64,000 bases of DNA from Turneriella sp. (GTDB lineage Bacteria; Spirochaetota; Leptospiria; Turneriellales; Turneriellaceae), in NCBI GenBank assembly GCA_965279515.1, contig CBDIID010000003.1:160001-224000 (forward strand), given 5' to 3'. The position numbers and the translations under genes were made by a program. The notes beneath the pieces were generated by a model that did no database searches, had not been told where the DNA came from, and was given only the letters and a program-made list of their open reading frames with translations. Position 1 is the stretch's first letter. Each line of letters begins with the position of its first letter. Shown here piece after piece: positions 1 through 26,426 of the stretch.

Positions 1-39
1 TCCAAGTATCTGTATTAGATGCGCGAACGGTTTGCTCAT
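1..39 (-). CDS. 5' end of a cassette ORF (MSKPFAHLIQILG...), truncated by the window edge
   Basis: ATG at 39-37 just after core site GTTGTGT (56-50); frame open to the window edge. Confidence 0.5.
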   Translation of the reverse strand, partial: MSKPFAHLIQILG

Positions 40-49
40 GGCTAATTTC

Positions 50-265
50 ACACAACGTGGAATTTACCTGACGTTTGGTGACACTTGTGTCATTAATTCA
101 ACCAGAAAAGCCGCCTTGTGTCACCAAATGTGCCCGGAGCGCCTCGCGGCAAAGCACAAAACAAGCGTCCCGCTTGTGCTTTGTCCGCGATCTTCTGGCG
201 CGTAGGGCCGAGCACCCGAGGAGCCACGGCACCGCAGGGAGCGCAGCAGGTAAATTTTGTTGGGC
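50..265 (-). repeat. attC-like repeat R1 (type A)
   Basis: acacaac...aatttacctg...caggtaaatt...gttgggc; 216 bp with internal stems. Confidence 0.9.
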
Positions 266-269
266 GAAG

Positions 270-1745
270 TCATTCTGCTAACGTTCGAGCTTGGTTCTTA
301 AGGTAAAGAAAAAGGCTGAATATCGCCGACCTTGCTATTCGCGTTAAGGAATCTAGGTCTTTCAAAAGTTGCTCTCTTGATACCTTTTTTATTGGGCCAC
401 TTGCCGTTTCAAAGATTGAACTCTTGGTCAATATCAGGGTGGAATGCTCAAGGATGTTACGGTATTCCTTAAAGAAGCGAAGTTCGCCAGTCTTCGATTG
501 AAGGTCCGTGGCAATGCTGTATAAGGCTATGAGATTGAAATTTCCCTCGCTGAACACGGCGTTCTTAATTGTGGGGTAATTTCGCCAGAAAGATTCGAAG
601 AGAACTGATTCGGCAGCGTGGAATTTGATATTATGGCAAAGCATCAGGCCAACTGCAATTTTGTCGAAAACACCATAAATGTAGCGGAACCCGGAAATCA
701 AGCTTAAGTCTGGCGTAAGGGTGGGAAAAAATTCCAAATTTGAAGTCGTGGCTTGATACAGGAGAGAACGACCAATATGAAAATCTACGATAATGCGATC
801 AAATATATGCTTAATGTTGACCGCCGATCGAAGCGAGCGGTTCTTAATGATCTTTAATGTCTCACTTTTGTCAGCAAGAATGTCGTTTCGACCTGCGGAA
901 CAGGAACAATAGTTACTATGTTGTGAAAGGAAAAGACCTCTCTTCAAGCAAAATGATGCCAAATCACCGTAGGAAGTATCATCCAAAACATACTCGAATC
1001 GGTGGCGCCGATCATCCTGTGTGAATTTGAAGCCCATACGCTTCAAGATTTCCCGGATGTATTTTAATTTGGTCCTTAGAAAATCTTTGCTGCCATATGG
1101 CGTAGCAAGGCGAATGGCTTTTCGGAGATGGTGAGACATAGAGAAAAGCATCTGGGGAGTGAACCGGTCCGAAAGATCATTTAACAGCTCCAAAGCCGTT
1201 ACCTTGCTAGCATGTGCTTCAAATCGATCTGGATTTATACTAAGGGCCTGTGAGTAGAAAAATAATGCTTCCGTTACTCGACCGGTGCAATTCAAGGCAT
1301 TTGCGATATTTACGAGAAGCTGGTCCTTCATGTCCTCATCATGGTCAGATAATTGTTTTAGACTGCGCCAATAATGATTTTTAGCTTCTATGACGGTTTG
1401 TAGGTTTTCAGCTGAATAATCGTTGTTTGAATGTCGCCTATGGTCAAATATCGCCTTTTTAGCATTTCCGAGATTGTACTGGAATGAAGACTTTGAATAA
1501 TATTTCTCATATCGCTGCACTTGAATGATCGCTAAACCTTTTTCAATGATATCAAGCCGCATTTGGTACGCGCCAATGTCAGTTAGAAGACAACCAGCTT
1601 TGTAATGAGAATTAATCTTGAAAATCGAGTCTTCGAGTCTTGGAAAAATATTCTCCAAGAAATTCAGAACCAAAGCCATTGCTTCGGCACTATTACCTTC
1701 ATCTACTAAGCGGTCTGCTGTTTCTAGATCAGAATGTATCGTCAT
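270..1745 (-). CDS. TPR + HEPN protein (LA2681-like), cassette C1
   Basis: TPR-like helices (YNLGNA, ANALNCTGRVTEALFFYSQAL) and C-terminal RxxxxH motif (YRNILEH). Start set at MTIHSD because the ORF-track TTG lies in the core site. Confidence 0.75.
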   Translation of the reverse strand: MTIHSDLETADRLVDEGNSAEAMALVLNFLENIFPRLEDSIFKINSHYKAGCLLTDIGAYQMRLDIIEKGLAIIQVQRYEKYYSKSSFQYNLGNAKKAIFDHRRHSNNDYSAENLQTVIEAKNHYWRSLKQLSDHDEDMKDQLLVNIANALNCTGRVTEALFFYSQALSINPDRFEAHASKVTALELLNDLSDRFTPQMLFSMSHHLRKAIRLATPYGSKDFLRTKLKYIREILKRMGFKFTQDDRRHRFEYVLDDTSYGDLASFCLKRGLFLSQHSNYCSCSAGRNDILADKSETLKIIKNRSLRSAVNIKHIFDRIIVDFHIGRSLLYQATTSNLEFFPTLTPDLSLISGFRYIYGVFDKIAVGLMLCHNIKFHAAESVLFESFWRNYPTIKNAVFSEGNFNLIALYSIATDLQSKTGELRFFKEYRNILEHSTLILTKSSIFETASGPIKKVSREQLLKDLDSLTRIARSAIFSLFLYLKNQARTLAE

Positions 1746-1772
1746 GCGGTCTTGTCTTGGCAGAATGATTTC

Positions 1773-1988
1773 GCCCAACGCGGAATTTACCTGACGTTTG
1801 GTGACACCTGTGTCATTAATTCAATCAGGAAAGCCGGTTTGTGTCACCAAATGTGCCCGAAGCGCCTCGCGGCAAAGCACAAAACAAGCGTCCCGCTTGT
1901 GCTTTGTCCGCGATCTTCTGGCGCGTAGGGCCGAGCACGCGAGGAGCTACGGCACCGCAGCGAGCGCAGCAGGTAAATTTTGTTGTGC
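1773..1988 (-). repeat. attC-like repeat R2 (type A)
   Basis: gcccaac...gttgtgc, 216 bp, near-identical to R1 and R3. Confidence 0.9.
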
Positions 1989-1994
1989 GATGAT

Positions 1995-2684
1995 TCAGCG
2001 GGCTTTGGGTGTCAGCGCCTTGGGGAAAATGGCAAAAAAAGCCCCTTGCAACTGACACATCATAACTAAATTTAAGCCATTAGCCCTGATGAAAACTTTA
2101 CCCTTATTAAAGTACGTCAATGATTTGCCTGAAAATTTGGCCATGCTTCTGTGTTGCTTTGCGGCCTTAATGAAATCGAAAGCCGCGTTTTTGGGCAAGT
2201 CCCTATCTGCAACCTGACTACTGAGCAGAGCATCCAATGAAACTTGCTCGTCAGATTTATGGGCTATAACAGGAAAATTCTTTGCCAATTTTACGCCGTA
2301 TTCTTCGGTTAGACTCAAAGTTTCATATCCTGAATTTCCAAGGGTATTCGCTTGGTCAATTTCCCAATATTTGCCAATCAGAAAATCTTGGGCTTTTACA
2401 GTGGAAAACTGAAAGGCGGTGCCATTTAAGAACTGTTGGATGGTATCACACATTTCAGGAATCTCTGGTTTCGAAGCACAATTCAGAGCAGTAGCATATC
2501 TGGCTATTTCTGTATCTGTGACGTCTGTCTTAACTTCAGCTTGGTCATAAGGAACTCCGCCCCTGTTATAAAGGTCTTCCATGCCAAATTCGCGCAATGC
2601 CATTTCTCGCCTGCTATGCCGACATGAGTATAAAACTAGCGCGGAAGAAAAGAGTATGGTCAGAGTTCTTAAGTCTTTGTTCAT
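1995..2684 (-). CDS. Putative lipoprotein, cassette C2
   Basis: MNKDLRTLTILFSSALVLYSC signal peptide with lipobox-like Cys. Confidence 0.65.
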   Translation of the reverse strand: MNKDLRTLTILFSSALVLYSCRHSRREMALREFGMEDLYNRGGVPYDQAEVKTDVTDTEIARYATALNCASKPEIPEMCDTIQQFLNGTAFQFSTVKAQDFLIGKYWEIDQANTLGNSGYETLSLTEEYGVKLAKNFPVIAHKSDEQVSLDALLSSQVADRDLPKNAAFDFIKAAKQHRSMAKFSGKSLTYFNKGKVFIRANGLNLVMMCQLQGAFFAIFPKALTPKAR

Positions 2685-2723
2685 TTTAGATCCCAATAAT
2701 CATATCTGGCCCGCTGAATTTTC

Positions 2724-2939
2724 GCACAACGCGGAATTTACCTGACGTTTGGTGACACTTGTGTCATTAATTCAATCAGGAAAGCCGCCTTGTGTCACCA
2801 AATGTGCCCGAAGCGCCTCGCGGCCAAGCACAAAACAAGCGTCCCGCTTGTGCTTGGTCCGCGATCTTCTGGCGCGTAGGGCCGAGCACGCGAGGAGCTA
2901 CGGCACCGCAGCGAGCGCAGCAGGTAAATTTTGTTGGGC
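2724..2939 (-). repeat. attC-like repeat R3 (type A)
   Basis: gcacaac...gttgggc, 216 bp. Confidence 0.9.
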
Positions 2940-2955
2940 GAAGTGCATTTTCGGA

Positions 2956-3966
2956 TTATGGTTTGCTAAGAATTTTCGTCTTTATTCGATCAAACAGATT
3001 CTGTTTCTTTTCTGGATTTGATCGATCGAAGACTCCATAATGGGCGCGGGCGATTACTAGATGGGGGAATTTGCGCTCAACCACCTCTGCAATATGGTTG
3101 TATAGCTCAATAAGGCTTTTCATCGCGCGCAGGCATTCATCGCGATCAAGTGGGACAATACCCTCGTGAATCAGCCGGTTTCGTAAGTCATATAAGTCAT
3201 TCTTCCAACGGATTACAAACTCGTTTTTTGTGTAGGACAAGTCGGCATCTACGTTTTTCCCAATATGGCGTTCCAGTTTCGGCTTAAGCGTATTTTCTTC
3301 AATGATCTCATCAATCTCTGCATCATTTCGCTGCTGGATTTTGAGGATATTCCGTAATAATTTGTTTACATATATTTCAAATGAGGTTTGGAGATCAATA
3401 ATGCCCATTTTGTACTGGGAGTTCGCCAGCTTTTGCTTCCCTAAGAAGAAATGCTCGTTGACCCTACTTAGGTCAAGTTTATCGTTCCAACGCCTGAGTA
3501 TTTCAATACTATTTGTAAAGTTTTCCTCTGTAAAAGATTCGAAATTGTGATCGTGTAATTTTCCCGGATCAGTAACATACATCGTAATCTGACCCCCAAT
3601 CTCAACAGGAATCAACATTGGAAGATCTGTTATCCCAATCGGAACCAGGTGCATAATTTCCTTTTCCGCAACCAATGCGGCCAAAATGGAATTTATCTCA
3701 TAAATACCTAAGTGCACGAACCTCTGTATCTGCGCTTCAGAAAAATCAGACATCTTTTTATTCTCGAATGCAGGAAATTCTACTTCCACTAGAGTGAAAT
3801 CCAGTTCCGACTCTACGCCAATATTCTCGTAATAGTTTGGAACAGAGCTTCTGCCTCGGCGCTTAGAGAAAGAAATTATTATAATATGATCTCTCGCATA
3901 ACCTATTTCGAGGCTCAATTTTTGAGGAGCGGGAATATTGTATGGCAGGAGGTAGATAATTTTCAT
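2956..3966 (-). CDS. HEPN-domain protein, cassette C3
   Basis: C-terminal LRNRLIH (RxxxxH) preceded by an SFEIYV helix; ATG at 3966 directly after the cassette terminal repeat. Confidence 0.7.
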   Translation of the reverse strand: MKIIYLLPYNIPAPQKLSLEIGYARDHIIIISFSKRRGRSSVPNYYENIGVESELDFTLVEVEFPAFENKKMSDFSEAQIQRFVHLGIYEINSILAALVAEKEIMHLVPIGITDLPMLIPVEIGGQITMYVTDPGKLHDHNFESFTEENFTNSIEILRRWNDKLDLSRVNEHFFLGKQKLANSQYKMGIIDLQTSFEIYVNKLLRNILKIQQRNDAEIDEIIEENTLKPKLERHIGKNVDADLSYTKNEFVIRWKNDLYDLRNRLIHEGIVPLDRDECLRAMKSLIELYNHIAEVVERKFPHLVIARAHYGVFDRSNPEKKQNLFDRIKTKILSKP

Positions 3967-3977
3967 AAATGCATTTC

Positions 3978-4193
3978 GCCCAACGTTGGATTTTACGCTG
4001 ACGTTTTTTGACGCCTGTGTCATTTATTCAATCTGTAAAGCCGAATCGCGTCAAAAAATGTGGTCGTAGCGGCTCGCGGCGACGCGCGAAAACACACCTC
4101 CCGGTGTGCGCGTCGTCCGCGATCTTTGCCGCGAAGACCCGAGCACGCGACCCAACGGAGTGGTCGCGGCGCAGCGCGTAAAATTTGTTCTCT
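3978..4193 (-). repeat. attC-like repeat R4 (type B, variant last arm)
   Basis: gcccaac...ttttacgc...gcgtaaaa...gttctct, 216 bp. Confidence 0.88.
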
Positions 4194-4280
4194 GCCGTAG
4201 CTGCACTTGTGAGCCTAGGCACGGATGCCTAGGCGACTAAGATCGGTAAAGTTACCGCCGGCATTCTACTTATTTCGGAT

Positions 4281-4895
4281 ATGAGCTCTTGCTCAAAAAC
4301 AATGTTTACGGCTTTCGAAGCCATAATTTCTGGTCAGGCTTTTCTTATGAGTCTTAATTCCTTATTTAATTTTCGTATCTCATGTACATGTTTCTTACTA
4401 CTGCTTTTTAGTACTTCCATAAAAGCGGCTGAATTGCCTGGATTTGATGTCGGAGTTTTAGGCAATGTATATGATACCATTAAGAGTGATGGCAGACCTC
4501 TGGCCTGGGGTAGTGGAGCTGGTGCTCTCGTTCACTGGCAATGGTCCGCGGATTGGCGAAGCGGAATGCAGATTGGATGCATAAGCGTCTGTGCTGGTAA
4601 TCTTGAAATCGGTTATCGAGCACAAACAATCTCTTATTCTCGGTTTCGGTATCCAGAACGACTGATTTATTATATCATCGGTTTGGGTATTCATGAAGTT
4701 TGGTTGCGTTTTGTCACGGGGATCAATTCAGTTAAGAACTATGATTCGCAACTTGGACTCGGTGTTGGATTCAGTGTGCACGCGTTTAAAATAGGCGATT
4801 TCTTCTTATCCTACGGAATAAATTTCTACATCATTAATGAATATATGGCATTTGGCTTAGGTCAAGCTTTTGCAGCTCTAGCGTTTCGGCTCTGA
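4281..4895 (+). CDS. Hypothetical exported/outer-membrane protein, inverted cassette C4 (start may be 4347)
   Basis: Only long ORF in the cassette; signal-like segment and alternating beta-strand pattern. Confidence 0.5.
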   Translation: MSSCSKTMFTAFEAIISGQAFLMSLNSLFNFRISCTCFLLLLFSTSIKAAELPGFDVGVLGNVYDTIKSDGRPLAWGSGAGALVHWQWSADWRSGMQIGCISVCAGNLEIGYRAQTISYSRFRYPERLIYYIIGLGIHEVWLRFVTGINSVKNYDSQLGLGVGFSVHAFKIGDFFLSYGINFYIINEYMAFGLGQAFAALAFRL

Positions 4896-4965
4896 GGAGA
4901 GATAATACATAACTGCGACGCGGCACCGCCACGGAGGGCGGTGAAAGAAAAAGTGCAGCTATGGC

Positions 4966-5179
4966 AGAGAACGTGGAATTTACCTGACGATTGGTGACAC
5001 TAGTGTCATTAATTTAATCAGGAAAGCCGAATTGTGTCACCAATTGTGCCCGGAGCGCCTCGCGGCAAAGCACAAAACAAGCGTCCCGCTTGTGCTTTGT
5101 CCGCGATCTTCGGCGCGTAGGGCCGAGCACGCGAGGAGCTACGGCACCGCAGCGGCGCAGCAGGTAAATTTTGTTGGGC
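4966..5179 (-). repeat. attC-like repeat R5 (type A)
   Basis: agagaac...gttgggc, 214 bp. Confidence 0.9.
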
Positions 5180-5222
5180 GAAGTGCACTTCAGTCGGCGA
5201 AAGCATGTTTTAGCAAAGACTA

Positions 5223-5723
5223 TTAGTCTTTTAAACTAGATTTAATAATTTTTATAAGGCTTACAAGATAAATGACCAGAACGCCTGCGATTGACCAAAC
5301 CTCAGGCGATTTGACCCAATCCATAAGAACGAACGGTGCAAAGAACATTGCCCAAAAACTGGGATTCCGAATTTCTTCTCTTCTTGCTAGGGATGTTATG
5401 AGATTTTCAGCAGGCTTGAAATTAGCATAGTAAATGGCTAAGAAAAACAGAAATATCGAAAACAGGGTAAAAACTATGAAATATAGAGCAAAAATCTTAG
5501 AGAATCGATCTTGAATTCCTAATTTGTAGGCACAAACCAGTACCGATATCGAATAAACAAGAATGTAATAATTGAACCAACCGTAAAAACTGCTAGGAGA
5601 ATTATCCGTGAAAGGATTGAAAATTAGATAAAGCAAGATCAAAGCTGATGCTATCAAAAATGCAGCAAAACATGCAATTGCTCTAGATTGACCTGACTTT
5701 TCATAAGTAATAGAGTTTCTCAT
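5223..5723 (-). CDS. Membrane protein (~4 TM), cassette C5
   Basis: 166 aa with several hydrophobic helices. Confidence 0.65.
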   Translation of the reverse strand: MRNSITYEKSGQSRAIACFAAFLIASALILLYLIFNPFTDNSPSSFYGWFNYYILVYSISVLVCAYKLGIQDRFSKIFALYFIVFTLFSIFLFFLAIYYANFKPAENLITSLARREEIRNPSFWAMFFAPFVLMDWVKSPEVWSIAGVLVIYLVSLIKIIKSSLKD

Positions 5724-5793
5724 CAGGTATAAAGGACTAAGTTAGAATAAAATGTATTTGTCTATAGCAATGAATTATTACTCTGTGCATTTC

Positions 5794-6010
5794 GCCCAAC
5801 GTGGATTTTACGCTGACGTTTTTTGACGCTTGTGTCATTTATTCATTTTGGAAAGCCGAATCGCGTCAAAAAATGTGGTCGTAGCGGCTCGCGGCGACGC
5901 GCAAAAACACACCTCCCGGTGTGCGCGTCGTCCGCGATCTTTGCCGCGGAGACCCGAGCACGCGAGGAGCTACTGCACCGCAGCGGCGCAGCGCGTAAAA
6001 TTTGTTGGGC
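5794..6010 (-). repeat. attC-like repeat R6 (type B)
   Basis: gcccaac...gttgggc, 217 bp. Confidence 0.9.
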
Positions 6011-6027
6011 GCAGTAAACCTTCGGTT

Positions 6028-7038
6028 TCATAAGGATCGCATGCTGAGGGATAGATTCAGAGACATTTCCAGTGTCGTATCTTTGAGTATCAGTTCTATG
6101 GCTAGCTGTAACGATTCCAGAGCTTCCAGCATGTCAATATTCCTTCGATTCAAACTATGGGCCACGTCATTTCTCAATTGTCTAAGTTTATCAATTCTTT
6201 TCAATACGCTGATATCGATAACTTCTGCGATTTCTAAAATATTGCTCATAACGCCCGCTGTAAAATCTCGACCCTCAAGAAACTTGCGTCTGTCTGCATT
6301 TATTCGCGAACTAGAGTCACGTAGATTAGTCAAGTACGTAGAATATGTATCTTTAAGTATTGCTTCAACAATGAACCAGGAAAGCACAATTGTCAGTCTG
6401 TAATTAGTCTTCTTGAACTCACTTATGGCTTTGCTCAGCGAATATATGGATTCTGAAAGGCTGGGCGAAGCACAGACAGCAATAAATAGTTCAAACGTGG
6501 ATTGGAGAATCGTCAAGGGCAAAGGCCAGCGAGAAGTTAATCCGAAGCTAGCTCTTAAGGGAAGACCTGGTCGATGTGTACTCCTGAATCGCTGCATGAA
6601 GTAATGGCCAACAACCGAGTTTGGTGGTATACCGGCACTGGTTTGGTTATTTTCCTCGTATGTGGTGCGCTGAGCGTCAGTTGAGGTTATTTCTCGAAAC
6701 TCAAACTGGGCAGATTTTTTTTCTCTAACTGTTACGCCATCGAGAATTAGAGTGTAGATGTTGCATAACTTAAGATACTCATTCCAAAGTTTTGCTCCAT
6801 GTTCAAAATCAGCGGGCTCGTTCTCACCCTTAACTTGCCCTTCTAATTTTTCATGACTAATCTCAACCATGCCATCACGTGCAACTCGAACAATTATGCC
6901 GTCTTTAGAATGACTTGAAACGATTTCAGAAAAATATTCTTCAAAATCCGGTCTGAGTTCTAATTCAGCCCAATTCGGCTCCTCGCCTGCCCAGAACGGG
7001 GGATTAGTGTAAAAATAAGTAAAATTTGCTTTGCTCAT
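6028..7038 (-). CDS. HEPN-domain protein, cassette C6
   Basis: C-terminal LRQLRNDVAH (RxxxxH) and upstream SWFIVE helix. Confidence 0.72.
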   Translation of the reverse strand: MSKANFTYFYTNPPFWAGEEPNWAELELRPDFEEYFSEIVSSHSKDGIIVRVARDGMVEISHEKLEGQVKGENEPADFEHGAKLWNEYLKLCNIYTLILDGVTVREKKSAQFEFREITSTDAQRTTYEENNQTSAGIPPNSVVGHYFMQRFRSTHRPGLPLRASFGLTSRWPLPLTILQSTFELFIAVCASPSLSESIYSLSKAISEFKKTNYRLTIVLSWFIVEAILKDTYSTYLTNLRDSSSRINADRRKFLEGRDFTAGVMSNILEIAEVIDISVLKRIDKLRQLRNDVAHSLNRRNIDMLEALESLQLAIELILKDTTLEMSLNLSLSMRSL

Positions 7039-7064
7039 TCGGTCTTATGCACTAGGTTTATTGC

Positions 7065-7280
7065 GCCCAACGTGGAATTTACCTGAGGTTGAGTGACGCT
7101 TCGTTCAACTTTGTGTTCTGTAAAGCCATATTGCGTCACTCAATCTGCCCGAAGCGCCTCGCGGCAAAGCACAAAACAAGCGTCCCGCTTGTGCTTTGTC
7201 CGCGATCTTTTGGCGCGTAGGGCCGAGCACGCGAGGAGCCACTGCACCGCAGCGAGCGCAGCAGGTAAATTTTGTTGTCT
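7065..7280 (-). repeat. attC-like repeat R7 (type A')
   Basis: gcccaac...gttgagtgacgc/gcgtcactcaat...gttgtct, 216 bp. Confidence 0.9.
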
Positions 7281-7294
7281 GCAGTTCTGGGCCA

Positions 7295-7960
7295 TTAGTG
7301 GATATCTATCGTCACTGCACCAAATAAGCCAGTGGCGTACTCAACATGGGCTTTTTCTCCTTGTCTTGTCCTTAAATAGACTGCTTTGCTCACACTTAAG
7401 TACAGGTTTTCAGAACCATTGCCATGCGTCAGCACCAGGTGATTACGCGGTCCCTTGCCATTTGTTTCGTATCTTTGAACTACATTCATTTTCTCAATTC
7501 TGCGTTCCTTAATGCTCACCATATTAAGCAACGCGATGAAGAAAATAGTCGGCAGAGAGAAAAGGGCTGCGTAGTAAGCAATGCGCGGTATCCTGAATTC
7601 ATACTGGTAGCCGCGGAAAGTAAGAGCCCCGTAAAAAATCAGCATGAATGCAGCTAAGAATAATAGCCCAAAAAAAAGGATTGGGAGGAAATTGAGCCAA
7701 TTAGCGGACGAGACCACAATACCGAAAAGAAAATTTGATACGATTATCCCTACTATCGGGGCCCGCAATGGCAAAGGCTCAAAGTAGAGCGGTCTTCGAG
7801 TAAAACCCACGGAAATAATAATGATTACTAGGTTTAGGCCAGAAGCAAGTAGAATTCGAAAATTGTTCTGTGGATCCGTGAAAATTAGAATCAAAATGAA
7901 AATCAAGTAAGAGTATTCTCGAACTTTACTGGACTCAAAGTATTTATAAAGTAGTTGCAT
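7295..7960 (-). CDS. Membrane protein, cassette C7
   Basis: ~5 TM segments plus a small soluble C-terminal domain. Confidence 0.65.
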   Translation of the reverse strand: MQLLYKYFESSKVREYSYLIFILILIFTDPQNNFRILLASGLNLVIIIISVGFTRRPLYFEPLPLRAPIVGIIVSNFLFGIVVSSANWLNFLPILFFGLLFLAAFMLIFYGALTFRGYQYEFRIPRIAYYAALFSLPTIFFIALLNMVSIKERRIEKMNVVQRYETNGKGPRNHLVLTHGNGSENLYLSVSKAVYLRTRQGEKAHVEYATGLFGAVTIDIH

Positions 7961-7979
7961 ATGCTTGGCCCAGAATTGC

Positions 7980-8195
7980 AGACAACGTGGAATTTACCTG
8001 AGGTTGAGTGACGCTTCGTTCAACTTTGTATTCTGTAAAGCCATTTTGCGTCACTCAATCTGCCCGGAGCGCCTCGCGGCAAAGCACAAAAACAAGCGTC
8101 CCGCTTGTGCTTTGTCCGCGATCTTCTGGCGCGTAGGGCCGAGCACGCGAGGAGCTACGGCACCGCAGCGGCGCAGCAGGTAAATTTTGTTGTCT
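7980..8195 (-). repeat. attC-like repeat R8 (type A')
   Basis: agacaac...gttgtct, 216 bp. Confidence 0.9.
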
Positions 8196-8224
8196 GCAGT
8201 TCGCCTTTAAAAAAATCATTGGGG

Positions 8225-8842
8225 TTATTCTGATTGTATGTAGGTGAATTCTAGTATGGGCTTTCGGGCCTGTTCACGCTGGATAAGACTTCTTAGCTGT
8301 TTTAGTTCGGTCTTGACTTTTTCTAGTTCATGCTCTTGCTTGAGTTTTTCCAGAGCGTTCGTTTCTTTCCTGATCATAGTGATTAATCGCTTCTCTGAAT
8401 TCTCAAATAAGGTGACCGAGGAAGGGGCATAATCAGGTTCTTCCTGACTTTCCTCGTAATGGCTGCGGCTATTTGAATAAGATTCAACTTTGAACTTGTA
8501 CTGGGAGTATAAAGCGTCAAGAATGGAAATCAACCTTTCCTGAGGACATTCGAACCCTGCTGCGCCACCAGTAAGATGATTCATGTGCAGCTCCTTGCCG
8601 AATTTCTCTTTCAGATAATTGATAACCTTGAAAACATCCGTAGGCCCGCTGATTGCTACGCGTAATGTTGGAATTAATTGATAACTAGGTTGCATCGCAA
8701 CTGAGCTAAAAATGGGCCTAAACGCCTCATAAGTCATAGGTCGATCTTGGGCTATTGTTTGCCGGCCAGTACAATAGGCGCTAAGCAGCACCGAAAGCAG
8801 GAAAACTGTATTCTTTTTTCGGTTCCAAATTCTTAGTTTCAA
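8225..8842 (-). CDS. Putative lipoprotein with coiled coil (possibly DUF4349-like), cassette C8
   Basis: CAGGAG RBS before a TTG start; LLSAYC lipobox-like; C-terminal coiled coil. Confidence 0.6.
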   Translation of the reverse strand: MKLRIWNRKKNTVFLLSVLLSAYCTGRQTIAQDRPMTYEAFRPIFSSVAMQPSYQLIPTLRVAISGPTDVFKVINYLKEKFGKELHMNHLTGGAAGFECPQERLISILDALYSQYKFKVESYSNSRSHYEESQEEPDYAPSSVTLFENSEKRLITMIRKETNALEKLKQEHELEKVKTELKQLRSLIQREQARKPILEFTYIQSE

Positions 8843-8865
8843 AAAAATCTCCTGTGGCGAATTGC

Positions 8866-9081
8866 AGACAACGTGGATTTTACGCTGACGTTTTTTGACG
8901 CTTGTGTCATTTATTCAATCTGTAAAGCCGATTTGCGTCAAAAAATGTGGTCGAAGCGGCTCGCGGCGACGCGCAAAAGCAAGCGTCCCGCTTGCGCGTC
9001 GTCCGCGATCTTTGCCGCCGAGACCCGAGCACGCGAGGAGCTACGGCACCGCAGCGGCGCAGCGCGTAAAATTTGTTGGCT
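8866..9081 (-). repeat. attC-like repeat R9 (type B with A-type tip)
   Basis: agacaac...gttggct, 216 bp. Confidence 0.9.
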
Positions 9082-9113
9082 GAAGTGATGCGTTGGGAGA
9101 TTACGCTTTGCCG

Positions 9114-9674
9114 CTATTTTAGAACCTTCGATTTTCGTTTATCAACGTCACTTAAGTAAAGAAACCCGGGAACGGTACCGCTATTTGTACCCCCCTTAAA
9201 AGGAACTGTAGCTCTGAATTTGAGGGGAAACATCTGTTTTGCATTCTTTTTGAGGGCCTTGTAATTTTCTTTCAATTCTGCCGCCTCGGGTTTTATTATT
9301 CCGTTCCAGAACGCAATTTGTTTAGTCCTGGCAATAATTATCGGGTGAACATAACCCAAATCTACCGTATCACTTGGTGTAATGTAACCAATAAAGGCTG
9401 TTCCATCGGCGCTGATAAATTCGGCCCGGACAACAAGTTGACCGGTAAATTCAGTAATTTCCTTGAGATCTGGGCGAGGGCGGACGGTAGCTTCATCTTG
9501 ACCTTCAATACCTTCTTCGTCCAAGGCAAATTCCCATACCGGACATTGCTCGATATCTGAGATTTTCAAATCGTATACTTGTTTTCGGATTCGCATCTGT
9601 GCCGCCAAATTCGTGACCAATAGTATCAATGTAATAAGTGGGGGAAGAGCTCGTCTGGTCAGAGAAATTATCAT
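9114..9674 (-). CDS. Hypothetical exported protein, cassette C9
   Basis: 186 aa ORF with a signal-peptide-like N-terminus; fills the cassette. Confidence 0.65.
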   Translation of the reverse strand: MIISLTRRALPPLITLILLVTNLAAQMRIRKQVYDLKISDIEQCPVWEFALDEEGIEGQDEATVRPRPDLKEITEFTGQLVVRAEFISADGTAFIGYITPSDTVDLGYVHPIIIARTKQIAFWNGIIKPEAAELKENYKALKKNAKQMFPLKFRATVPFKGGTNSGTVPGFLYLSDVDKRKSKVLK

Positions 9675-9702
9675 GTAAACATCTTAGTCATCGCATCATT
9701 TC

Positions 9703-9920
9703 AGCCAACGTGGATTTTACGCTGACGTTTTTTGACGCGTGTGTCATTTATTCAAACTGTAAAGCCGATTTGCGTCAAAAAATGTGGTCGTAGCGGCTCG
9801 CGGCGACGCGCGAAAACACACCTCCCGGTGTGCGCGTCGTCCGCGATCTCTGGCCGCGGAGACCCGAGCACGCGAGGAGCTACGGCACCGCAGCGGCGCA
9901 GCGCGTAAAATTTGTTGTCT
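9703..9920 (-). repeat. attC-like repeat R10 (type B)
   Basis: agccaac...gttgtct, 218 bp. Confidence 0.9.
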
Positions 9921-9994
9921 GAAGTAATTGCGCCTGCAAGCCTGGCCAAGGAGGGCCAGGCGGCTAATTAAGATAAAATTTTAGGCTCATAAAT

Positions 9995-10510
9995 TCAGAT
10001 AAATGACGGTACAAGTATATCTATTCCTTTGAGATTTATTCGCGATAGGATTTCCTTTCCGCGGGGAGAAATAAATAGCCTAGGCTTATTTATTTCATAA
10101 TAAACCAGCTCGTCTTTCAGTACATTATCTTTGAACACCGGTTCATCAATAACCAAAATGTTTCCGGAAGAGCCATAGGTGATCTGGGAACTCCCTTGAT
10201 CCAAGCAGCTTCTATGATTTTTGCATGCGAATAGGAATATCTCGGTATCATCGCACATTAATCTGTGAAATGTACCGTCATTGCTTAACGCGGAAAATAG
10301 CTCAGGAATTTTCTTGCCAATTACAGTTAGCCCGACACTTGTATCAATATCTGGCATGGGTCGTGTTTTTGCATAAGCCCATGAGACCTTAGTGTTTTTG
10401 AGGACGTTTGGGCTGAATCGCCCAAAACGCAGTGCGTCATCGATTTCGTTTTGATTTGAGAACAAGAGTTGCTGATATCTGTTCTTAGGCGAAAGTATGT
10501 ATGGCTTCAT
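9995..10510 (-). CDS. Imm11/DUF1629-like immunity protein, cassette C10 (first in the array)
   Basis: CLDxxxS...I...PVF...LFIS...LKG pattern typical of the Imm11 family (recognised by eye). Confidence 0.55.
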   Translation of the reverse strand: MKPYILSPKNRYQQLLFSNQNEIDDALRFGRFSPNVLKNTKVSWAYAKTRPMPDIDTSVGLTVIGKKIPELFSALSNDGTFHRLMCDDTEIFLFACKNHRSCLDQGSSQITYGSSGNILVIDEPVFKDNVLKDELVYYEINKPRLFISPRGKEILSRINLKGIDILVPSFI

Positions 10511-10668
10511 TAGACGCCCCTGGCAAATAAATCAATATTCTCGAGATTGATTTTATATGGCAAATCATGTTGTCACTCAAAAGGAATTTCATATAAGAAA
10601 ATGCCCTCCCTTGCCTTGCGCGCAGCGTCGCCAAGGATGGCGACGAAGTATATAGGCGCAATTATTTC

Positions 10669-10688
10669 AGACAACGTCTATTAGCTGA
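10669..10688 (-). other. attI-like site (array start)
   Basis: Minus strand TCAGCTAA-TAGAC-GTTGTCT: a core site with no attC body behind it; CAGCTAA resembles the CAGGTAA inner box of the repeats. Confidence 0.6.
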
Positions 10689-26352: not shown

Positions 26353-26426
26353 TGCGAAATACTGGATTCGAACCAGTGACCTCTTCCATGTCAAGGAAGC
26401 GCTCTAACCAACTGAGCTAATTCCGC
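26353..26426 (-). tRNA. tRNA-Val(GAC), CCA not encoded
   Basis: GCGGAAT acceptor stem, D-arm AGCTCAGTTGGTTAGAGC, anticodon arm CTTCC-TTGACAT-GGAAG, GGTTCGAATCC. Confidence 0.96.

Follow-up and report, generated by a model that had tools for sequence, protein, structure and literature searches.

Introduction

The attC sites of integrons are described as 57 to 141 bp long, with an R box of the form RYYYAAC/GTTRRRY and a spacer of 5 to 6 unpaired nucleotides in each arm, and their extrahelical bases lie on the bottom strand in the arm opposite AAC (accessible part of Nivina 2016). The R box has a full length of 7 bp in the available text of Loot 2017, and the integron integrase IntI is defined by an additional (I2) domain in the excerpts of Larouche and Roy 2011 and Cury 2016. 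The reaction between phage CTXphi and XerCD, in which the phage stem has no extrahelical bases, is given as the only known one resembling cassette recombination, and a Xer-like ancestor of the integron integrases has been speculated on (Escudero 2016, in the portion available). Treponema is named as the sole spirochaete clade known to carry integrons in the accessible portion of PMC3607928. Here, we describe an array of integron-like gene cassettes in a spirochaete of the genus Turneriella, found in a 64,000-nucleotide stretch of DNA (GenBank assembly GCA_965279515.1, contig CBDIID010000003.1, positions 160,001 to 224,000), which is referred to as the window. The two ends of each cassette are complementary over about 18 bp with a fixed G.T wobble, and the arms so formed are probably the outer part of a recombination site that is read by the array's own recombinase. 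No earlier description of such a system was found in the literature searched, of which subscription journals and supplements were out of reach.

The cassette arrays

The window carries the end of one of two giant arrays. Its positions 1 to 10675 comprise ten complete cassettes, named C1 to C10, and part of an eleventh, and the repeats between the cassette bodies are 200 to 204 nt long and bounded by ...AAC| and |GTT.... Genome positions are given below with the prefix contig C3:, on which the window occupies G000:C3:160001-224000. The genome has a completeness of 99.99% and a chromosome of 4.84 Mb. A repeat profile search of it returned 152 matches, mainly in the two arrays at contig C3:~93,007-169,913 and C3:3,734,385-3,804,585, and 127 cassette bodies with 96 distinct left arms were delimited genome-wide. 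Of the 13 other genomes of the genus, 12 carry the repeats, which were also found in a second genus of the family.

Complementary arms of about 18 bp at the cassette ends

The preliminary description of the window held that the ends of every complete cassette form their own inverted repeat of 16 to 22 bp with an invariant G.T pair at position 11, counted from the G of GTT, and this was borne out in all ten. Each pair of arms shows Watson-Crick pairing over the full length given except at position 11, and none pairs beyond that length. Position 11 is G in the left arm and T in the right arm in 10 of 10 cassettes, and an extra T.T at position 10 occurs in C2 only. As had also been noted, the stop codons of C1 and C2 lie inside their left arms (open reading frames [ORFs] 270..1778 and 1995..2696, minus strand). 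The sequence predicted for the start of the partial cassette, to the left of the window, agrees letter for letter with the genome, which reads gttgtgtgaagttagcc right after the repeat ending at contig C3:159521. The cassettes farther left, on which the description could have failed, carry matched extensions and the position-11 G as well.

Genome-wide, positions 1 to 18 except 11 are each Watson-Crick paired in 79 to 96 of the 96 distinct left arms. Position 11 is G.T in 92 of these arms and Watson-Crick in 0, and among the 127 bodies it is G.T in 123 and never Watson-Crick. Pairing is found in 34 to 45 of 96 arms at positions 19 to 22 and in 19 to 37 of 96 at later positions. The stem length has a mode of 18 and a range of 16 to 22, with a sharp end at 18 followed by background pairing. 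The first 12 positions are semiconserved, with G8-C in 95 of 96 arms and T12 in 86 of 96, and positions 13 to 18 use all four bases, covary, and are still paired in 79 to 93 of the 96. When five genomes of the genus are taken together, 167 of their 169 distinct arm pairs have G.T at position 11, and none is Watson-Crick there. The arms behave in the same way in relatives G002, G011, G013, and G005; in G002, position 11 is G.T in 46 of 46 bodies, and the stem reaches at least 16 in 39 of 46.

The semiconserved first 12 nucleotides are all that would favor chance or the ordinary shared ancestry of neighboring repeats as the source of the complementarity, but the controls refute this reading and leave it with next to no probability. 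In 100,000 random GTT.../...AAC window pairs, a mean of 3.8 of positions 4 to 18 were Watson-Crick, and the share with at least 12 of these 15 was 4e-5. At positions 13 to 20, true partners pair at 6.4 of 8 positions versus 2.2 of 8 for nonpartners. A strict signature was defined as GTT, G8-C, G11.T, and an 18-bp stem with at most 1 mismatch, and a scan of the 4.84-Mb chromosome returned 109 matches, of which 106 lie in the two arrays and 3 beside stray repeats, with none away from repeats. A coding explanation of the fixed bases was also considered and rejected, since no more than about 22 of 96 arms have ATG at positions 11 to 13 and only a minority have stop codons at positions 12 to 14.

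The outer edge of the stem is the insertion point of an IS481-like insertion sequence (IS), a second element that reads the same landmark. The IS is about 1.3 kb long and encodes a 401-amino-acid (aa) DDE transposase (for example, at contig C3:156640-157974). Its end motif occurs in 11 places, and in 10 of the 11 it lies exactly 18 to 19 nt from the AAC of a right arm and in one orientation. The insertions, at contig C3 positions 90760, 99137, 138035, 144413, 157964, 159289, 3734355, 3741827, 3750263, and 3766283, all precede the window on the contig or belong to the second array. This site specificity resembles that of the IS1111-attC group, though the transposase family differs.

The mobile unit and its crossover point

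The mobile unit was delimited from 48 pairs of duplicated bodies that lie in different contexts. The left repeats of such pairs have a mean identity of 0.92, versus 0.76 for the right repeats, and the left repeat is the more alike in 42 pairs and the right repeat in 6. In all five duplicated pairs inspected, identity breaks at AAC|G on both ends of the unit, which locates the crossover to the shared AAC(G) rather than to a phosphate. The shared left repeats and the AAC|G breaks indicate that the mobile unit is an interior together with the body to its right on the + strand. Read on the minus strand, the unit is an ORF followed by its site, i.e., a canonical cassette. By this cassette structure, the + strand is the bottom strand, and the crossover lies at its 5'-arm AAC. 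AAC and GTT show no variation (positions 2 and 3, 96 of 96), and the boundaries are of the integron type, RYYYAAC ... GTTRRRY.

The arms of a junction are 200 nt or a whole body apart, so that only folding joins them, and the earlier suggestion that pairing of the cassette ends is confined to the excised form, folded as a single strand, is supported. Double-stranded dif-like sites were rejected as an account of the junctions on the same distances, and a single dif-like site of about 28 bp was rejected because the sites are hairpins of about 240 nt in more than 100 copies. Left-right arm "skips" (20- to 37-nt sides) in contigs from four sequencing runs were set aside as an artifact expected of inverted arms or repeats, which speaks neither for nor against circles.

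The recombinase linked to the arrays

IntI was searched for with the model TIGR02249 at a cutoff of 265 bits, with positive controls scoring 488 and 507 bits. None of the four tyrosine recombinase genes of the genome passed (best, 93 bits per piece), nor did any gene in 20 genomes of the family, while 29 of 301 genomes of the phylum passed the same model. The genome contains a 366-aa tyrosine recombinase (contig C3:2926096-2927193) with orthologues in 13 of 13 genomes of the genus. It scores 161 bits on the IntI model versus 196 bits on the XerA model, and array-linked recombinases as a whole score 161 to 192 bits on TIGR02249 and 196 to 222 bits on the XerA model, or up to 231 bits on TIGR02249 when loci from metagenome-assembled genomes (MAGs) are included. 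In the alignment, the IntI insert of about 45 aa that constitutes the additional domain is absent. This domain of IntI is said to be required for activity and is invoked for the recognition of folded sites and for the avoidance of a second strand exchange. The 366-aa protein fits the solved structure of XerA (4a8e) slightly better than that of IntI4 (2a3v), and its structure model (mean pLDDT, 78.5) has an N-terminal extension of three helices and, at residues 60 to 83, a disordered linker. Its nearest database relatives, as named by their sources, are from Turneriella sp., Spirochaetes, and a Leptospiraceae bacterium, followed by recombinases of about 270 aa from candidate-phyla bacteria.

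In six of six relatives examined, the orthologue is next to the array on its AAC/attI side, with transcription directed away from the array. The junctions inspected in relatives G002, G005, and G007 share a conserved sequence, in that the last cassette is followed by AAC|GTCTATTCCCTG..GGCGGG and then by the recombinase gene. In two phylogenetic trees, the IntI proteins formed one clade (support of 100/99, then an SH-aLRT of 99) with no array-linked recombinase inside. The second tree was built without the row G143_IntI, a misassigned ORF with a branch length of 8 to 10 in the first. A host Xer/dif system or an IMEX was rejected as the source, in that separate XerC/D-like genes (contig C3:4832357-4833196 and 1401151-1401969) branch apart from the array-linked recombinase. 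The description of the sites as attC with an extended stem thus holds in part: the cassette ends do pair in the fold, but the site is not an ordinary integron attC with an addition, given the XerA-like recombinase and the lack of IntI in the genome and the family.

In the genome studied here, the 366-aa recombinase gene is intact but isolated, with a partial degenerate repeat 1.9 kb away (contig C3:2929088-2929180). An ORF resembling alpha/beta-hydrolases stands beside it, in the place that attI and the first cassettes occupy in relatives. No recombinase gene was found at either end of either array, where only IS481-like transposases and housekeeping genes are present.

Distribution beyond the genus and comparison with IntI arrays

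Homologues of the recombinase at E ≤ 1e-45 are present in 46 of 301 genomes of the phylum. Twenty of these phylum loci were examined, and in 14 the signature lies beside homologous recombinases that lack the IntI additional domain. In all 14 of these signature loci, it is the AAC end of the array that is turned toward the recombinase gene; the gene is divergent in some, and its 3' end abuts the array in others. In a scan without demands at positions 8 and 11, position 11 was G.T in 57 of 59 arm pairs and position 8 was G-C in 58 of 59. The interiors beyond the genus range from 82 to 370 nt and differ in sequence, with the same stem.

A wider scan covered 79 loci around distant relatives of the recombinase, a broad XerA-like and IntI-like mix from which records of the window's own group were excluded. 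The strict signature was found in 3 of the 79, namely, in a MAG labeled Spirochaetota (interior of 84 nt), a MAG labeled Firmicutes, and an unclassified MAG. The Firmicutes-labeled MAG carries it in four of four cassettes, with interiors of 255 to 370 nt and with T.T at position 10 and G.T at position 11 as in C2. The three loci adjoin recombinases of 290 to 357 aa that score 221 to 231 bits on the IntI model. A relaxed scan of the wider loci gave one possible extra locus (L078) and matches in L142 and L121. At L078:10945-11668, in a MAG labeled Firmicutes (UBA5388), a single arm pair beside a recombinase relative has A.C at positions 8 and 11 on one strand; this pair, with G.T at 8 and 11 on the other strand, may be a further variant of the hallmark. 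A match at L102 was taken as noise from a large inverted repeat, and the repeats of L067 are repeated genes rather than such an array.

Arrays adjoining true IntI genes (TIGR02249 scores of 507 and 488 bits) were compared, a comparison that could have overturned the preliminary description, and neither of the two has a long end stem. End complementarity is 5 to 9 bp with a mode of 8 in an array of 14 cassettes from a genome of the same phylum and 8 to 10 bp in an array with sites of about 130 nt from a Calditrichia MAG (four cassettes, read by eye). The signature scan in its relaxed form returned 0 matches in these two arrays. The pairing of only 5 to 10 bp in them indicates that the system of the window is not a canonical integron.

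The arms might alternatively be a footprint of cassette genesis, in which a templated step at packaging, e.g., fold-back copying of about 18 nt, would have produced arms that were merely tolerated afterwards. A chance 6-nt match at positions 13 to 18 is improbable for every new cassette, the sharp 18-nt limit could be a molecular ruler, and identical arms occur on differing bodies (169914 versus 3734588, with a body identity of 0.65). However, no candidate enzyme or intermediate was seen, and, with compensatory variation, the pattern has persisted between phyla and through long divergence, which requires ongoing selection on pairing. Tolerated footprints are thus a quite improbable account of the arms. 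An origin of the arms in cassette genesis is nevertheless compatible with reading by the recombinase and does not compete with the function suggested for them.

Folding of the sites

The preliminary description had suggested folding the cassettes as circles in silico. The circular and array (hybrid) forms of 92 cassettes were folded with DNA parameters. The + strand of the circular form has a mean folding energy of -76.8 ± 3.8 kcal/mol, versus -62.3 ± 5.1 kcal/mol for the + strand of the array form and -71.7 ± 4.1 kcal/mol for the minus strand of the circular form. The circular form exceeds the array form in stability in 90 of 92 cassettes, with a mean difference of 14.5 kcal/mol, and the stem is extended in the circle rather than in the hybrid, as anticipated. 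The + (bottom) strand is more stable than the minus strand in 92 of 92 cassettes, in keeping with the earlier claim for the bottom strand, and the G.T at position 11 together with G.T pairs of the spacer would account for its advantage of 5 kcal/mol. The folding energies suggest that the stem may act as a directionality switch.

In the fold, the outer stem is followed by two unpaired bases immediately 3' of AAC and then by a stem of 10 to 13 bp and three hairpins. The spacer is short and asymmetric, with 4 versus 2 nt, two G.T pairs, and 2 extra bases on the AAC arm, and no base of the opposite arm is unpaired in the spacer or in the initial 10 bp of the L stem. A consensus fold of the ten window repeats contains 59 pairs; compensatory changes are seen in 14 of these, and the spacer has invariant G.U pairs.

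The strand with the G.T pairs bears on a role at the RNA level, in which the arms would pair in the transcript and process, stabilize, or insulate the cassette message. G.U is a good pair in RNA, and the arms flank each ORF. The ORFs are on the minus strand in nine of the ten window bodies, C4 being the exception, and the G.T strand is antisense to these nine, so that the sense RNA would carry C.A instead. The arms meet only across a whole body or in the circle, and the feature follows the crossover point and the recombinase gene rather than promoters or terminators. No RNA family was matched in the repeats by Rfam at the gathering threshold, at which the sole match was a tRNA at 26353-26426. 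A function in the transcript is therefore very improbable.

The energies themselves raise the possibility of a purely thermodynamic stem, in which the arms would stabilize a big branched hairpin and favor integration with no contact to bases or wobble, and G8 and G11.T would be inherited from an ancestral site. The 14.5-kcal/mol advantage of the circular form and the long, branched interiors agree with it. However, G8 and G11.T are kept beside interiors of 82 to 97 nt and in lineages with little interior sequence in common, and the stem stays at about 18 regardless of interior length. In addition, the canonical IntI array with sites of about 130 nt has just 8 to 10 bp, and neutral inheritance does not explain why position 11 is never Watson-Crick in 169 arm pairs. 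We consider a stem without read-out unlikely.

Proposed explanation

We propose, with a probability of about 60%, that the arms form the outer portion of a recombination site belonging to an integron-like cassette system and that the arm is read by the array's own recombinase. The excised unit would consist of the attC-like interior and the body, bounded by AA^C on the + (bottom) strand. In this unit, the ends of the body flank the interior of about 200 nt and would close into a stem of about 18 bp as a continuation of the AAC/GTT pair. The folded site would present a long, duplex-like R arm, the short asymmetric spacer, the L stem of 10 to 13 bp, and the three hairpins, and a XerA-like tyrosine recombinase without the I2 domain would read the R arm. 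Xer sites have arms of 11 bp. The conservation of the cassette arms ends at position 12, which corresponds to an 11-bp arm counted from the AA^C cleavage point. Positions 2 to 12 may accordingly form an arm of Xer length with base-specific contacts to A2, A3, C8, and T11 on the cleaved strand, and positions 13 to 18 may serve as duplex of no particular sequence. A recombinase without the I2 domain plausibly requires a mimic of duplex DNA, a point made for CTXphi and XerCD in the accessible part of Escudero 2016.

The wobble and the divided arms would each have a consequence for the reaction. With G facing T at position 11, the bottom strand stays paired and the top strand has a C.A mismatch, a difference that would aid strand choice and hence the orientation of insertion. 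In the array, the halves of a site come from different cassettes, so that the R arm is only partly paired, and this should disfavor excision relative to integration and hold the cassettes in place. The fixed stem of about 18 bp and the conserved G8 and G11.T, common across phyla, argue for read-out by a recombinase and not for a curiosity of particular cassettes.

Several observations weigh against this explanation. About 20 of the 127 bodies have nonmatching arms (stem of at most 9 without a simple mismatch), several of which carry IS insertions or resemble fused or rearranged cassettes. Outside position 11, G.T exceeds A.C in the arms by only 19 to 8 (P = 0.05), so that the main support for the choice of strand comes from the invariant pairs and from where the crossover lies. 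In one register of the consensus fold, 3 nt further in on the arm opposite AAC are unpaired; bases similar to extrahelical bases are thus possible, and the term duplex-like applies only to the R arm, the spacer, and the initial 10 bp of the L stem. The extra spacer bases are on the AAC arm, which in canonical sites is a mark of the top strand (Nivina 2016, in the part available). The recombinase gene of this genome (C3:2.926 Mb) is far from the arrays (0.09 to 0.17 and 3.73 to 3.80 Mb), an intact attI-like motif was not found in the genome by a pattern search allowing 2 mismatches, and the arrays of this genome may be inactive. Of the 20 phylum loci, 6 returned no match to the signature; in one of them (L158), no ORF at all was found, and in the other five, the gene lies close to a contig end and little flank is available. 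The recombinase trees do not settle the branching order among the groups. Finally, the observations comprise the anatomy of the sites, its conservation and covariation, the cassette boundaries, the linkage to the recombinase, and the folding energies, and binding, cleavage at AA^C, exchange of single strands, strand choice, and a bias in direction are all inferred from them.

More tentatively, and with less than even chances, the arrays could represent a second widespread lineage of cassette platforms, whose XerA-like recombinases never had I2 and which uses an R arm with a G.T wobble in place of extrahelical bases, and canonical IntI integrons may derive from it. In such a derivation, the recombinase would have gained the additional domain and the arm would have shrunk to 7 bp. 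If true, this would supply the Xer-like intermediate that is only imagined in the Discussion of Escudero 2016, in the text available. Arrays of more than 100 cassettes are linked here to recombinases without the IntI-defining domain. The arrays are present in at least 12 of 13 genomes of the genus, 14 of 20 phylum loci, and one Firmicutes-labeled MAG, and the 18-bp end stem with G8 and G11.T provides a simple hallmark suited to sequence scans. If the recombinase is active, the system would offer a natural test of the purpose of the I2 domain, a testable candidate for the transition from Xer to integrons, and a new class of structure-specific recombination sites, and it would hold a large, unannotated pool of cassette genes that is missed by tools keyed to IntI.

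Layout of the window array and other features

All features of the window array are given on the + strand, apart from ORFs stated to be on the minus strand. The window opens with the right end of a body begun to its left (1..56), whose right arm at about 39-56 (...ggctaatttcacacaac) pairs with the left arm gttgtgtgaagttagcc starting at contig C3:159522 in a stem of 18 with G.T at 11; the body spans 159522-160056. The attC-like interior at 57..258 (202 nt) travels with C1, on the evidence of its AAC|...|GTT boundaries, four-way-junction fold, compensatory changes, and the duplicated bodies; the interiors that follow are assigned by boundaries and fold. Body C1 (259..1779) has arms of 20 bp (259-278/1760-1779), with G.T at position 11 as the sole non-Watson-Crick pair, and its ORF (270..1778, minus strand) has HEPN_LA2681 and TPR. 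The interior of C2 (1780..1981) is followed by body C2 (1982..2730; arms 1982-2003/2709-2730, 22 bp, with T.T at 10 and G.T at 11; ORF 1995..2696, minus strand). In the remaining bodies, G.T is likewise at position 11. The interior of C3 (2731..2932) precedes body C3 (2933..3984; arms 2933-2950/3967-3984, 18 bp), and the interior of C4, a second sequence variant (3985..4186), precedes body C4 (4187..4972; arms 4187-4208/4951-4972, 22 bp), whose ORF (4281..4895) is on the + strand. The interior of C5 (4973..5172) is followed by body C5 (5173..5800; arms 5173-5188/5785-5800, 16 bp), that of C6 (5801..6003) by body C6 (6004..7071; arms 6004-6021/7054-7071, 18 bp), and that of C7 (7072..7273) by body C7 (7274..7986; arms 7274-7294/7966-7986, 21 bp). 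The interior and body of C8 are at 7987..8188 and 8189..8872 (arms 8189-8205/8856-8872, 17 bp), those of C9 at 8873..9074 and 9075..9709 (arms 9075-9092/9692-9709, 18 bp), and those of C10, the last cassette of the array, at 9710..9913 and 9914..10675 (arms 9914-9935/10654-10675, 22 bp). The array ends with GTCTATT (10676..10682), likely a remnant of the attI-side junction, in which the similarity to the junction of relatives ends after 7 nt. To the right of position 10675, an Mla-type ABC transporter operon comes next, and no recombinase is found there.

In a Pfam scan of the window cassettes, two ORFs were above the curated cutoff, and the only clear domain was HEPN_LA2681 in C1. The 502-aa product of C1 contains TPR repeats and, at its C terminus, an LA2681-like HEPN domain, a type frequent in defense or toxin systems. 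The ORF of C4 runs opposite to the other nine, and the cassette at contig C3:108092-108814 is apparently likewise. Short GC-rich hairpins lie inside both arms of C4 and C10 (window 4213-4234, 4929-4945, 9940-9961, and 10637-10655), with loops such as CAAGGAGG or CACGGATG, and they are also found in many cassettes elsewhere that carry the arm gttgtctgaagtaattgcgcct; these hairpin ends are common to bodies of differing content.

Outside the window, a body of 194 to 195 bp with no ORF at the size scanned recurs at least 13 times across both arrays (e.g., contig C3:111115-111308). Its arms have G.T at positions 8 and 11, and it always occurs together with the third sequence variant of the repeat. 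Chimeric repeats, also outside the window (contig C3:99166-99368 and 100043-100251), have 5' and 3' halves from different variants with mismatched inner-stem halves and are probably products of homologous exchange between repeats.

Comparison with known systems

Xer-dependent dif modules of Acinetobacter plasmids are gene modules bounded by short double-stranded dif-like sites and dependent on the host XerCD. The arrays of Turneriella share with them discrete gene modules bounded by Xer-type sites, whereas those modules are not known to have a folded site of about 200 nt, arm pairing across the module ends, or a dedicated recombinase.

The resemblance to integrons is closer. Both have arrays of mostly promoterless single-ORF cassettes in one orientation, with imperfect palindromic sites bounded by ...AAC/GTT..., and in both the mobile unit is an ORF with its downstream site and AAC boundaries, with a tyrosine recombinase gene at the attI end. 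The similarity of site interiors within a genome is also seen in sedentary chromosomal integrons. As in integron attC sites, the bottom strand folds better than the top (Nivina 2016, accessible part). The integron layout of array, integrase, and attI is encountered in the relatives (6 of 6, and 14 of 14 phylum loci) but not in this genome. Unlike in integrons, the recombinase has no IntI-defining additional domain, the pairing at the R box extends to about 18 bp with fixed G8 and G11.T versus the 7-bp R box, and the interiors alone are 200 to 211 nt versus 57 to 141 bp for a whole attC. A further difference is the spacer, which is short, is mostly paired, and carries its extra bases on the AAC arm.

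Taken literally, the definition in the available part of Cury 2016 would place both arrays among the CALIN (clusters of attC sites lacking an integron integrase), as clusters of attC-like sites with no IntI nearby or in the genome. Unlike in such clusters, IntI has not been lost here, since the whole family is without it and relatives carry another recombinase at the end of the array.

The sites resemble that of CTXphi in pairing a Xer-type recombinase without an I2-like domain with a hairpin stem that would mimic duplex DNA, and they have a long, perfect arm of Xer-like length. In contrast to the phage, which has neither a recombinase of its own nor cassette arrays, the system described here has a dedicated recombinase gene at the end of the array and hundreds of cassettes.

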